A stretch of DNA of 16,874 nt from Candidatus Woesearchaeota archaeon (lineage in GTDB: Archaea > Nanobdellota > Nanobdellia > SCGC-AAA011-G17 > JACPIM01), in the NCBI GenBank assembly GCA_964513145.1, contig CAZELK010000008.1, positions 1 through 16,874 of the forward strand, written 5' to 3'. Shown piece by piece: positions 3,188 through 11,998 of this stretch (position 1 is its first letter; each line of letters starts with the position of its first letter). The position numbers and the translations under genes are program-made. Under the pieces are notes generated by a model, which did not search any database, was not told the origin of the DNA, and saw nothing but the letters and a program-made list of their open reading frames with translations.

Positions 3188-3817
3188 ATGTTCGCTCAAA
3201 AAAATAATTTTGTTATAAAATATGAAAAAGAAGATAATGCTTTTATTGATTCTTTGAATTTAAAAGAAGTATACAAAAGAGTACAGGATTTTTTTGAGTT
3301 TAATATAATTTTGAATATTAAAATATGTTTTTTATATTCTGTTAATGAGTTTAATTTCTTTTCAAGAGACAAATTTGAAGAATGGAAATGCTGTTTCTGT
3401 GGATCAAATAATACTATATTTATATTTTCCCCAAGCATTATTGAAAATTTAACTATACACAAAAGATCAGAATTTAATCAACTTCTAACGCATGAGTTAT
3501 CACATATCTTTTATGGAAATATGCATTTCCCAAGACTTGGTTTATTTGATGAAGGAATTGCTACTTACTTGTCTTTTTATAATAGAAATAAAAATATAAA
3601 AAATAAAATAACAATAACTGAGAATACATTAATAAAAGAATATCCCAAACAAAGAGAAATATATAATTTGGGATTTAAAGTTGTAAATGAAATTTTAGAG
3701 AAATATAACAAATTAAAATTATTTGAATTCCTAAAGAGAGTTCAAGAGTCTGACTCTGAAGATAAAATAAAAGAATCTTTTAAAGAAGTTATTGGAATAC
3801 CTATAACTAAAATTTAA
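3188..3817 (+). CDS. Putative zinc metallopeptidase (HExxH, gluzincin / peptidase MA-like)
   Basis: LTHELSH followed by LFDEGIATYL, providing the third-ligand Glu. No evident signal peptide. Confidence 0.75.
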   Translation: MFAQKNNFVIKYEKEDNAFIDSLNLKEVYKRVQDFFEFNIILNIKICFLYSVNEFNFFSRDKFEEWKCCFCGSNNTIFIFSPSIIENLTIHKRSEFNQLLTHELSHIFYGNMHFPRLGLFDEGIATYLSFYNRNKNIKNKITITENTLIKEYPKQREIYNLGFKVVNEILEKYNKLKLFEFLKRVQESDSEDKIKESFKEVIGIPITKI

Positions 3818-9281: not shown

Positions 9282-10376
9282 ATGAAAAAAGTCATTACTA
9301 TAGCCGGAACAAGACCAGAATGGACGAAATTAAGTGCCCTAATACCATTATTAGACCAGGAATTTAATCATATCTTAGTTCATACTGGGCAGCATTATTC
9401 TTATAATATGGATAAGATATTTTTTGAAGAATTAAAAATAAGACCACCTGATTATTCTTTAGATGTTGGATCTGGAACTCAAGCTGAACAGGTTGGAAAA
9501 GGAATGATTGAATTTGAAAAAATCTTACTTAAAGAAAAGCCAGATTTGGTAATTGTATTTGCTGACACAAACAGTCCTTTAATTGGTTCTTTAGTTGCTT
9601 CAAAATTACATATACCTATTGCACATATTGAAGCAGGATGCAGATCTTTTAATAAACTAATGCCTGAAGAAATTAATAGAATAGTTGCAGATCATTGTTC
9701 TGACTTATTGTTTCCTCCTGATAAAGCAGCTTATAAAAATTTAAGAAAAGAAGGAATAAACAAAGAAAAAATATTTTTAACAGGCAGAACAGTTTATGAT
9801 GCTTGCTTAAGAACAAAAGAACTAGCTTTACAAACAGATATTTTAAAAAAATTAAATTTAGAAAAAGGAAACTATGTCCCATTAACAATTCATAGAGCTG
9901 AAAATACAAATAATTTAGAATCCTTAAAAATGATAGTTAACGCAATAAATTCTGTTTCAGTTAATGTTAAGATCGTATTTCCAATTCACCCAAGAACTAA
10001 AAAACTATTGCAAGAAAACAATATTAAACTTAGTGAAAATATCTTAGTAATAGAACCTTTAGGTTATTTAGAATTTACAAATTTGTTAATTAATGCCAAA
10101 TATACAATGACTGATTCTGGAAGTATTCAAGAAGAAGCAGTTATTTATGATATACCTTGCTTAATTCTAAGAAATGAAACAGAATGGACTGAGTTTATAG
10201 AAAAAGGTAAGAATTTGTTAGTTACAACAAATTATGATGCTATTATTACAATTAACAATGAATTATTAAATAATCCTTCTAAATTAGAAGAGATGAAAAA
10301 TATTAAAATAAAACATAAAGAAAATGTTTGTAAGAAAATAGTCGCGATTTTAAAAAATGAGCTTGAAAATATTTAA
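9282..10376 (+). CDS. wecB: Non-hydrolysing UDP-N-acetylglucosamine 2-epimerase (WecB/WbpI family)
   Basis: GTRPE, HTGQHY, HIEAGCRS, PEEINR, TIHRAEN, FPIHPRT, TDSGSIQEEA, LRNETEW. Confidence 0.93.
   Translation: MKKVITIAGTRPEWTKLSALIPLLDQEFNHILVHTGQHYSYNMDKIFFEELKIRPPDYSLDVGSGTQAEQVGKGMIEFEKILLKEKPDLVIVFADTNSPLIGSLVASKLHIPIAHIEAGCRSFNKLMPEEINRIVADHCSDLLFPPDKAAYKNLRKEGINKEKIFLTGRTVYDACLRTKELALQTDILKKLNLEKGNYVPLTIHRAENTNNLESLKMIVNAINSVSVNVKIVFPIHPRTKKLLQENNIKLSENILVIEPLGYLEFTNLLINAKYTMTDSGSIQEEAVIYDIPCLILRNETEWTEFIEKGKNLLVTTNYDAIITINNELLNNPSKLEEMKNIKIKHKENVCKKIVAILKNELENI
10348..10367 (+). repeat. 20-bp direct repeat, left copy (TTTTAAAAAATGAGCTTGAA)
   Basis: Identical to 11015-11034; lies in the last codons of wecB. 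Confidence 0.95.
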
Positions 10377-10390
10377 TTATTTAAAACCAA

Positions 10391-10425
10391 AATGTTTAAA
10401 TATAACATTTACGTATTAGTACGTA
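10391..10425 (+). promoter_or_regulatory. TA promoter with candidate operators
   Basis: TTTAAATA at 10395-10402 sits inside the inverted repeat AATGTT-N7-AACATT (10391-10409); two TACGTA palindromes at 10410-10415 and 10420-10425. Confidence 0.55.
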
Positions 10426-10441
10426 TAAATTCGAGTTAATC

Positions 10442-10657
10442 ATGATAAAAAAGAGCGATTTATTGATAACAGTGCACGCTGCTGATAAAATGATTATTGA
10501 AGGAATTTCAGCTGATCAAGTTTGTATAGCTTTAGAAAGAGGATCAAAATTTAAACAAACTGACGGATATTTAATGGTTTACTCTTATTTTTCGGTCGCA
10601 TACAAAATTATTGGAAATAAATATAAAATAAAAAGTGTTTTTATTAATAGGAGTTAA
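10442..10657 (+). CDS. DUF4258-like small protein (putative toxin)
   Basis: ITVHAADKMIIEGISADQVCIALERG matches the HA..(R)M...GIS..(E)V..AL..G pattern; 71 aa; directly upstream of an antitoxin-like gene. Confidence 0.7.
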   Translation: MIKKSDLLITVHAADKMIIEGISADQVCIALERGSKFKQTDGYLMVYSYFSVAYKIIGNKYKIKSVFINRS

Positions 10658-10658
10658 A

Positions 10659-10991
10659 ATGGATAAATGTGATAATTGTGGAAAAGGAACTTTGAAAAGA
10701 AAAAATGTAGATTATTTTTTATTGGGTCTAAATTTAGGTAATTTTGAAGCTTATGTTTGTTCTGAATGCGAAGAAACTGTTTTCGATGGAGAAACATTTG
10801 AATTAATTGAAAAAGAAGCTAAGAAAAAAGGACTGTGGGGGCTATCTGCAAAAACACGTATAGGCACTGCTGGAAATTCCTTAGATGTTAGATTACCTAA
10901 AACAATTACAGAATTTTTAAATTTAAAAAAGGGTCAGGAAGTAATTATCGAGCCCCTAGATAAGAAAAGATTTCAAGTGACTATAGAATAG
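10659..10991 (+). CDS. YgiT/MqsA-type zinc finger fused to an AbrB/MazE/SpoVT DNA-binding domain (putative antitoxin)
   Basis: CDNCGKG...VCSECEE zinc ribbon; C-terminal RIGTAGNSLDVRLPKTITEFLNLKKGQEV. Start moved to ATG 10659, with AGGAG at 10649-10653. Confidence 0.85.
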   Translation: MDKCDNCGKGTLKRKNVDYFLLGLNLGNFEAYVCSECEETVFDGETFELIEKEAKKKGLWGLSAKTRIGTAGNSLDVRLPKTITEFLNLKKGQEVIIEPLDKKRFQVTIE

Positions 10992-10992
10992 T

Positions 10993-11000
10993 TTTATAAA
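10993..11000 (+). promoter_or_regulatory. Candidate TATA for the SDR gene, located inside the cassette
   Basis: TTTATAAA, 31 nt before ATG 11024. Confidence 0.45.
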
Positions 11001-11014
11001 TTATTACTACAGTG

Positions 11015-11034
11015 TTTTAAAAAATGAGCTTGAA
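11015..11034 (+). repeat. 20-bp direct repeat, right copy
   Basis: Identical to 10348-10367; contains the SDR start codon. Confidence 0.95.
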
Positions 11035-11998
11035 GAATAAAAATATTTTAATAACTGGCGGTGCGGGATTTATTGGCAGTCATTTAGCAGATGCTTTAAT
11101 AAAGGAAAATCCCGAAAATATAACTATTTTATCAAATTTCTTTTTGGGAAAAGAAGAAAACCTAAAAGAAGCCAAGGAAAGTTTCCCAAAATTAAAAATT
11201 TATTATGGAAGTGCTGCTGATTTTGAAGCAACAAAAAAGATATTCGAAAATCTAAATATAGATATTGTTTATGATCTGGCTGTAATCCCTTTGACAGCCT
11301 CACTTGAAGACCCATTAAATACAACATTAGAAAATATTAAAATATCAATAAATATTTGTGAATTATTAAGAAAAGACTTGTTCAAGAAATTAATTCATTT
11401 CTCTTCTTCTGAAGCTTATGGCAGTGCTAAACAAGTTCCTATGAATGAAGGTCATCCATTAAATCCTGAAACACCTTATGCTGCTGCTAAAGCAAGCGGG
11501 GACTTAATTGTTGATTCATATTACAGGACATTTAAACTTAATACATCAATTTTAAGGCCGTTCAATAATTATGGTCCAAGACAAAATTCAGGAAAATTTG
11601 CAGCAATTATACCATTATTTATTAAAAAAATAATGAACAATGAAAATACTTTAACAATTAATGGAGACGGAGAACAAACAAGGGATTTTATTTTTGTTAA
11701 AGATACAGCAAGAGCAGCAGTTGAATTTTCTAAAAGCAATAATGTAATTGGCAAAACAGTGAACATTGCAAGCGGGCAAGAAATAAGCATGAATTACTTG
11801 GTTGATTTAATAACAAAAGAAATGAATTTTAAAGGAAAGATAATTCATGGAAAAGAAAGACCAGGAGATGTAAGAAGGCATTTCGCAGATGTTTCTCTAG
11901 CTAAAAAATTATTGAATTTTGAAACTAAAGTTAAATTTGAAGAAGGAATTAAAATAACCTGCGACTGGTACAAAAAGAACTTAAAAATTCTAAACTAA
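11024..11998 (+). CDS. Extended SDR nucleotide-sugar epimerase/dehydratase/decarboxylase
   Basis: GGAGFIG, SSSEAYG, PYAAAK (YxxxK), RPFNNYGPRQ, GDGEQTRDFIFV, RPGDV. Confidence 0.93.
   Translation: MSLKNKNILITGGAGFIGSHLADALIKENPENITILSNFFLGKEENLKEAKESFPKLKIYYGSAADFEATKKIFENLNIDIVYDLAVIPLTASLEDPLNTTLENIKISINICELLRKDLFKKLIHFSSSEAYGSAKQVPMNEGHPLNPETPYAAAKASGDLIVDSYYRTFKLNTSILRPFNNYGPRQNSGKFAAIIPLFIKKIMNNENTLTINGDGEQTRDFIFVKDTARAAVEFSKSNNVIGKTVNIASGQEISMNYLVDLITKEMNFKGKIIHGKERPGDVRRHFADVSLAKKLLNFETKVKFEEGIKITCDWYKKNLKILN

Follow-up and report, generated by a model that had tools for sequence, protein, structure and literature searches.

A putative toxin-antitoxin cassette bracketed by a 20-bp direct repeat at the wecB/SDR junction of a DPANN archaeon

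How do toxin-antitoxin (TA) modules move when they carry no mobility genes? This old open question is raised by a window of 16,874 nucleotides (the whole stretch of DNA that was analyzed, on contig CAZELK010000008.1 of a Candidatus Woesearchaeota archaeon), in which two TA-like genes bracketed by a 20-bp direct repeat stand between wecB, a UDP-N-acetylglucosamine 2-epimerase gene, and a gene for an SDR-type NAD-dependent sugar epimerase/dehydratase. The wecB/SDR locus amounts to a natural experiment of rare clarity: the insertion point is known to the base, the nearest relatives have empty alleles, filled alleles of different ages exist (with perfect repeats, with decayed repeats, and with a decaying cassette), and other cassettes in the same 0.98-Mb genome bear the same scar, which makes the route testable. 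The account that we consider quite likely to be correct is that a foreign TA operon entered the wecB/SDR overlap by insertion with target duplication, that host repair or replication probably performed the joining, and that gain or loss has been repeated. The locus is then a clear example of 'addiction' genes moving without a transposase of their own, and insertion into a translationally coupled pair of glycan-pathway genes appears possible without destroying either gene.

The 20-mer TTTTAAAAAATGAGCTTGAA is found on the forward strand at positions 10348–10367 (left copy) and again, without mismatch, at 11015–11034 (right copy), a spacing of 667 bp from start to start. When the window was shuffled 200 times with dinucleotide composition preserved, no shuffle contained two matches to this sequence. 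The host genome (977,603 bp, 29% GC, 98.8% complete) is that of a DPANN archaeon, judging from protein homologues labelled Woesearchaeota or Nanoarchaeota, and it contains no exact copies other than these two, the nearest other match having two mismatches. The analytic chance expectation, calculated from 29% GC, is ∼0.1 exact 20-mer pairs genome-wide at spacings of 250–4000 bp; it was used instead of a Markov-3 random-genome control, which was erratic, with six of ten runs yielding 0 pairs and the other four yielding low-complexity artefacts. The left copy constitutes the final codons of wecB (9282–10376, forward strand; PF02350, E 6.6e-102), of which the last two codons and the stop (10368–10376) are derived from the insert, such that the protein terminates in NELENI in the window versus NELEK or NELVK in relatives with empty sites. 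The right copy spans 9 nt upstream of the SDR gene, its native start codon (ATG, 11024–11026), and its first codons, and the SDR gene itself (11024–11998, forward strand; PF16363, E 5.2e-59; PF01370, E 3.5e-53) is intact. The insert proper is 647 bp long (10368–11014, forward strand), comprising a putative promoter and operator, putative toxin and antitoxin genes, and a tail of 23 nt; only two open reading frames lie between the repeat copies, at 10442–10657 (71 aa) and 10659–10991 (110 aa). Removal of one 667-bp unit in silico yields ...AATGAGCTTGAAGAATAA, in which wecB ends in NELEE and a stop and overlaps the SDR ATG by 17 nt. An earlier note made from the letters of the window had placed the repeat at these positions, described its contents as a promoter and two TA-like genes, predicted this deletion product, and pointed to a TATA-like box shortly before the SDR start; exact matching, the search for open reading frames, and the in silico deletion bear out each of these statements, with a putative TATA box upstream of the two genes and the second box, TTTTATAAAT at 10992–11001, located 31–32 nt upstream of the SDR ATG. 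The genome-wide search for the 20-mer proposed in that note returned no exact copies beyond the pair at wecB/SDR.

The same note had also proposed a search for the empty site in related genomes, where it proves to be present. Two genomes of the same genus (G001 and G002) are empty with a 17-nt wecB/SDR overlap and a third (G003) is empty with an overlap of 14 nt, each having one copy of the repeat region. Relatives closer than these congeners were found through a wecB protein search. The nearest, L177 (P0050), with amino acid identities of 87–88% for wecB, 83% for PMSR, and 85% for SDR, has an empty site with an 11-nt overlap; an overlap of 17 nt is seen at the empty site of L181 (P0053) and, judged from gene layout alone, on the P0055 contig. 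The empty junctions for which DNA is available contain a single copy of the repeat, and the 647-bp insert is missing from G001–G003, L177, and L181. The objection that relatives might always carry the TA pair at this position, with no empty allele, is thus not borne out. In L177 (3570–3600) the SDR gene has ATA in place of ATG as its start codon and is called from a TTG 6 nt downstream, which gives the 11-nt overlap. Separately, the gene layout of the P0056 contig places an IS200/IS605-type Y1 transposase gene directly after wecB, so that the junction has also been struck by a conventional element.

These observations are consistent with insertion at the 17-nt overlap of wecB and SDR, in the course of which 20 junction bases would have been duplicated so that they flank the insert. 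The left copy would keep the end of wecB, to which the insert adds the last two codons and a stop, and the right copy would keep the start of the SDR gene. As the unit contains no mobility gene and no recognisable ends, we infer that insertion proceeded by host break repair or replication, possibly as fill-in of a staggered break or as a template switch, with selection presumably retaining only those events that left both genes whole. Loss of the cassette would occur by recombination or slippage between the repeats, restoring the overlap exactly, and gain would occur by fresh insertion or by recombination from a filled relative. The earlier note had offered a non-autonomous element with either a long target duplication or an att-like core, or an excisable module, and this proposal is upheld by the empty sites, the differing states of sister lineages, and the lack of a recombinase in the unit.

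Filled alleles are not confined to the window. At this junction L040 and L041 (wecB identity 79%) also have the cassette, with decayed repeats (in L040, TATTGAAAAATGAGCTTGAA on the left and TTTCAATAATGGGCTTGAA on the right), and alignment of the L040 and window junctions makes it possible that the original duplication was ∼35–40 bp long and decayed later. L182 (wecB 81%) is a decaying filled allele that no longer has the toxin gene and whose antitoxin gene is interrupted by an internal stop. The gene layouts of two further contigs, P0004 (antitoxin identity 86%) and P0006 (84%), show the same spacing beside an SDR gene. The tail TAGTTTTATAAAT following the antitoxin stop recurs in every filled allele for which DNA is available, and the head of the insert is likewise common to the window and L040. 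A cassette 84% identical to that of the window is also found in L042–L047 at an unrelated site beside MoxR/DUF58/VWA genes, where homology with the window is limited to the segment from just upstream of the TATA box through the stop codon, indicating that the unit has been placed at more than one site. L042 and L177 co-occur in the same four samples, and the notion that they represent one genome with a relocated cassette was considered and is not demonstrable; between L042 and the window MoxR is 80% identical, and the two genes flanking the cassette are just 52–57% identical. With regard to L182 itself, the toxin gene is replaced by unrelated sequence with small open reading frames (L182:1833–2547), and the right joint contains two tandem repeat-like copies, AATGAGTTTGAAAAT and ATGACTTTGAAGAAT.

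With wecB DNA, the filled window and the empty L177 come out as sisters in the tree (100/99), and identities of PMSR and SDR likewise place the window with L177. In the wecB protein tree, built without the last 16 residues, the window groups with P0051, P0050, and P0052 (86/97), and the filled L040 is sister to the empty P0055 (98/93). The cassettes of the window, L040, L182, and L042 in turn form one clade (97/95). Two sister pairs therefore differ in state, which indicates that the junction gained or lost the cassette more than once. Within the question of direction, the shared head and tail of the filled alleles favor a single origin. In the stretch corresponding to the 20-mer the window and L177 differ at 2 of 20 positions, yet the two copies within the window are identical at 20 of 20, and synonymous divergence (dS) between the window and L040 is ∼0.63 for the cassette versus 0.97–1.37 for host genes; the perfect repeat of the window and the cassette dS lying below host dS favor a younger or lateral gain. 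Import of a filled allele with long flanks by homologous recombination left no clear sign in the flank comparisons: at 150-nt resolution the window is closest to L177 nearly throughout, the lineages failing to separate in just two stretches, the initial 150 nt of SDR and the 5' third of wecB, and base-level alignment of the last and first 120 nt reveals just two or three variants common with filled alleles, some of them also present in empty congeners. In the 242-nt PMSR-wecB spacer of L040 (1370–1611) a remnant of an EamA gene encoding FKKLTIEK is observed; EamA is intact at that position in L177, L181, G002, and G008 and wholly missing in the window. Loss of EamA was considered as a shared derived marker of the window and L040 and was rejected, the remnant in L040 pointing to independent losses.

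The family and fold of its two proteins suggest that the 647-bp unit is a self-contained type II TA operon. The first gene (10442–10657, forward strand) encodes a putative toxin of 71 aa, tentatively assigned from family profile and predicted structure to the DUF4258 family with a RelE/ParE-superfamily (BECR) fold. Among relatives of this protein, which are widespread in DPANN genomes, matches to PF14076 (DUF4258) score 30.5 bits for L087 and 25.0 for L066, both of which reach the Pfam cut-off of 25, and 24.5 for another aligned relative, and His12, Ala13, Gly21, Gly34, and Val52 are invariant in the alignment. The AlphaFold2 model (pLDDT 96.7) has BrnT (3u97) as its top fold match, with TM 0.71/0.66 and a root mean square deviation of 2.4 Å over 74 columns; RelE, YafQ, and YoeB are the other top matches, so that the top matches are RelE-superfamily toxins only. 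The second gene (10659–10991, forward strand), co-oriented and 1 nt downstream, encodes a putative antitoxin of 110 aa with an N-terminal CxxC...CxxC zinc ribbon resembling the MqsA N-domain (conserved cysteines C4, C7, C34, and C37) and a C-terminal AbrB/MazE domain, matched by PF04014 over residues 71–100 (E 1.9e-4); the antitoxin family profile gives weak similarity to the MqsA N-domain (E 0.13–0.55) and E 0.99 to MazE. The pair is present in 102 of 131 family loci, and dN/dS values of 0.07–0.15 for the toxin gene and 0.10–0.18 for the antitoxin gene indicate purifying selection on both. A search of viral contigs for relatives of the antitoxin returned none.

Upstream of the toxin gene, 40 nt before its ATG, lies a putative archaeal TATA box TTTAAATA (10395–10402, forward strand) that is conserved in the window, L040, and L042, and a TATA-like box occupies the equivalent position in other members of the cassette family. 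Between this box and the toxin start is a candidate operator, TACGTA-TTAG-TACGTA (10410–10425, forward strand), possibly a binding site for the AbrB-type antitoxin; its counterparts are the perfect palindrome TACGTACTAGTACGTA in L040 and AACGTACTAGTACGTA in L042, and motifs resembling TACGTA recur in L073, L105, and L055. The toxin would be a DUF4258 RNase of RelE/BrnT fold neutralized by the zinc-ribbon domain of the antitoxin, the AbrB domain of which would bind TACGTA-N4-TACGTA between the TATA box and the transcript start and repress the operon; loss of the cassette would then arrest the cell, and the cassette would be stabilized accordingly. At the other end, the TATA-like box TTTTATAAAT in the tail of the insert (forward strand), a candidate replacement promoter for the SDR gene, is retained in each of the three filled alleles for which DNA is available (window, L040, and L182), 31–33 nt ahead of the SDR start, and is missing from the L042 cassette at its unrelated site. 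The insert supplies a new end for wecB and probably also a new promoter for SDR, and by inference the module may affect expression of the glycan genes.

Insertion with long target duplication was reportedly described for restriction-modification (RM) units by Nobusato et al. (2000, Gene 259:99). Furuta, Abe and Kobayashi (2010, NAR 38:2428, PMC2853133) reported RM units that are flanked by unique repeats, that contain no mobile element, and whose site is empty in a related genome, and the repeats often span start or stop codons such that target genes remain intact. The mechanism of this insertion is not known, with double-strand breakage being suspected (PMC2853133; also PMC3874152). The cassette analyzed here is closest to this phenomenon: in both cases a small selfish unit without a mobility gene is bounded by direct repeats that occur as one copy at the empty site, are unique in the genome, and span a stop and a start codon, leaving the genes intact. 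It differs in its cargo, a TA operon instead of an RM system; in its host, a DPANN archaeon instead of a bacterium; in the length of the duplication, 20 bp versus the published ∼46 bp and more (on the order of 100 bp); in its target, the overlap of two coupled genes; and in its polymorphism, the same junction being filled or empty among related lineages. Among the papers searched, none describes insertion with long target duplication for TA operons or for archaea.

Several points weigh against the proposed insertion with target duplication and repeated gain or loss. The changes of state may have been repeated gains or repeated precise losses. The host relationships are based on three linked genes only, and the scoring of states includes P0052, taken as empty from its C-terminus alone, and P0055 and P0056, read from gene layout only, with P0051 unscored. 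We know of no intermediate, donor, or enzyme for the joining. The 71-aa protein of the window matches PF14076 at E 0.033 with 14.9 bits, under the cut-off of 25, and the Foldseek E-values of its model are weak, at 0.03–0.1. Furthermore, Furuta et al. (PMC2853133) required repeats of >30 bp in a genome-pair screen and >20 bp in a flank screen; a 20-bp repeat is under the first of these thresholds and just at the limit of the second.

The alternative to be considered first is site-specific integration, in which the 20-mer would be the att-like core for a tyrosine recombinase acting in trans on a cis-mobilisable element (CIME), which would form a circle with one core and be excisable in the same manner. 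The earlier note had stated that no transposase, integrase, or convincing terminal inverted repeat is visible, and this agrees with our profile and repeat searches: no recombinase or Pfam mobility domain was detected in the two open reading frames of the unit, no terminal inverted repeats were found at the insert ends, no integrase lies beside the unit within the window, and neither a Y1 transposase nor Cas1 was found in the host genome. Integration by a recombinase in trans accommodates the direct repeats with a single copy at empty sites and the occupation of the same junction in several lineages with empty sisters; three tyrosine-recombinase genes are present in the genome, all on other contigs, and the family cassette of L133 and L135 lies at the 3' end of a tRNA gene with a repeat that corresponds to the tRNA end, a classic integrase target. 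However, the repeat consists of coding sequence native to the host junction and has no further genomic copy, no integrase is nearby, the L042 cassette lacks the 20-mer, and repeats in the family differ in sequence, are 12–40 nt long, and show no common motif at the insert ends, all of which renders site-specific integration an improbable explanation.

Related classes of element were compared on the same evidence. A transposon or miniature inverted-repeat transposable element was rejected on the basis of the missing terminal inverted repeats and of duplication lengths that range between 12 and 40 nt among family members. An integron cassette was likewise rejected: only 23 nt separate the stop codon from the repeat, and this tail has no hairpin and no stable fold (−0.8 kcal/mol, z +1.3). 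An integrase-mediated element is disfavored by the absence of an adjacent integrase and of the 20-mer at the L042 copy. Integron cassettes and att-flanked CIMEs resemble the unit in their promoter-poor or small cargo, the lack of a recombinase of their own, repeat boundaries, and a defined site; they differ from it in that here there is no attC-like hairpin, the repeat is host coding sequence and not borne by the element, and no integrase is adjacent.

A second alternative, that a single illegitimate recombination duplicated 20 bp by accident and that the other repeat-flanked cassettes reflect coincidence or tandem duplication, depends on how often such repeats recur. The flanks of ∼90 loci of the cassette family were screened for repeats in comparison with shuffles. 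Repeats above every shuffle were obtained for the window, L055, L155 (40 nt, 5 mismatches), L147 (28 nt), L105 (22 nt), and L135, and repeats within the shuffle range for the orthologous L073/L075 (16 nt) and for L133 (12 nt, at the tRNA 3' end). The L105 repeat duplicates the end of the upstream gene ahead of the following gene, and the tRNA-end-like sequence of L133 is also that of the L135 repeat. The repeats of the family always lie 63–139 nt before the toxin start and 1–34 nt after the antitoxin stop with sequences that vary by site, and the repeat-to-repeat spacing of independent insertions at other gene ends is 596–727 bp. A search for an empty counterpart of the L073/L105 junction, at which a CYTH-like gene neighbours a 345-aa gene, was negative, the two genes never being adjacent in the 30 loci fetched; the 345-aa gene is present in 211 of 240 genomes of the order.

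Other cassettes within the genome of the window (G000) are also bracketed by exact repeats of 22–51 bp. These comprise a PIN_3 and MazE/AbrB pair with a 30-bp direct repeat (C5:12586–13458, L216), a YafQ/ParE-like toxin with a 56-aa antitoxin and a 27-bp direct repeat (C9:26519–27358, L217), DUF2283 with a 105-aa partner and a 23-bp direct repeat (C5:25205–26394, L218), and, within a 22-bp repeat of low complexity, a paralogous zinc-ribbon-AbrB pair accompanied by a 341-aa gene (C11:21343–23349, L219). The longest repeat, of 51 bp, surrounds a 1.3-kb insert at C10:14349–15763 (L221:1349–2763) that adjoins the 3' end of a gene of 340 aa and carries an MNT/HEPN-like pair, namely a nucleotidyltransferase (PF01909) gene and a 136-aa partner. 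In L042 the orthologue of this 340-aa gene abuts the DUF4258/zinc-ribbon-AbrB cassette at the equivalent end, so that different cassettes have landed at one and the same gene end.

In favor of an isolated accident, no mechanism or enzyme is known, flanking repeats above the shuffles occur at just ∼6–8 of ∼90 family loci, and some of the genomic repeat pairs are between paralogues. Nevertheless, several cassette types in one genome with exact repeats of 22–51 bp, where ∼0.1 pairs are expected by chance, the independent family insertions with repeats at the same operon-relative positions and similar spacing, and the same pattern published for RM units leave a one-off event with little probability. 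A broader claim, that small TA operons of DPANN archaea spread by a general recombinase-free route that targets gene ends and junctions, generates target duplications of 20–50 bp, and allows precise exit through the repeats, is tentative and in our estimation falls somewhat short of an even chance; if it is true, junctions such as wecB/SDR would cycle between filled and empty states, a reversible and scar-free form of mobility driven by host repair or replication.

Slightly less probable than either site-specific integration or a one-off accident is that the cassette is a fixed relic of a single ancient, vertically inherited insertion that has not moved since, the identity of the repeats being due to constraint on coding and translation start and the sister contrasts being artefacts of single-locus trees. 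The tail TAGTTTTATAAAT present in all filled alleles, the head common to the window and L040, the identity of the filled allele in three samples, and the functional sequence that overlaps both repeat copies are compatible with such a relic. Against it stand the grouping of the window with the empty L177, in wecB and in PMSR and SDR identities, and of L040 with the empty P0055, as well as the lower dS of the cassette in comparison with host genes; moreover, with 2 of 20 positions differing between the window and L177, and with several differing between the two copies in L040, zero differences between the window copies over an equal span of time would be unlikely. Misassembly of the cassette at a short repeat, for which there is nothing beyond the presence of that repeat at both joints, can be dismissed as highly improbable, as the filled site is 100% identical to the window in three independent Logan assemblies (SRR12113420, SRR12113422, and SRR12113424), diverged relatives show the same arrangement, and both flanking genes are intact at the joints.

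Returning to the cargo, DUF4258 has been listed as an uncharacterised toxin family of BECR fold with known DUF4258-MqsA fusions (Gerdes 2025, PMC11980606). The cassette resembles MqsRA and these fusions in having the toxin gene first, a small toxin of BECR/RelE fold, and an antitoxin with an N-terminal CxxC...CxxC zinc ribbon; it differs from MqsA in its C-terminal AbrB/MazE domain in place of an XRE helix-turn-helix, and from MqsRA in that the toxin is DUF4258 and not MqsR and that an archaeal TATA promoter is combined with the putative TACGTA-N4-TACGTA operator. Membership in MqsRA was accordingly considered and rejected, there being no MqsR match, weak similarity to the MqsA zinc ribbon, and an AbrB/MazE C-terminus. 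BrnTA of Brucella abortus (3u97) provides the best structural match of the toxin model and has the same toxin-first gene order, whereas sequence identity with BrnT is 9%, the families are distinct (PF14076 versus PF04365), and the zinc-ribbon-AbrB antitoxin is unrelated to BrnA.

Two further arrangements were observed within the cassette family. In L133 (2230–2265) and L135 (2229–2264) the family cassette directly follows the 3' end of a tRNA gene (GGTTCGAATCCGCCCGGGGCTA), and a copy of the tRNA end recurs after the antitoxin stop, a classic footprint of the integrase type. In G061, a DPANN genome, a composite repeat consisting of CCTGCMGTCCGCAT, then CGCGAAGCTCTGGGGTTGCTCAG, and then the hairpin GGGGAAGCCCCCTTAT brackets two unrelated TA cassettes on different contigs (L055:2633–2717 and 3338–3391; L094:880–1560, minus strand). 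The L055 repeats are part of a composite repeat found throughout that genome, which also brackets an unrelated RelE-type cassette, and the G061 repeat looks like a genome-specific, cassette-associated sequence, unlike the host-derived repeat of the window.

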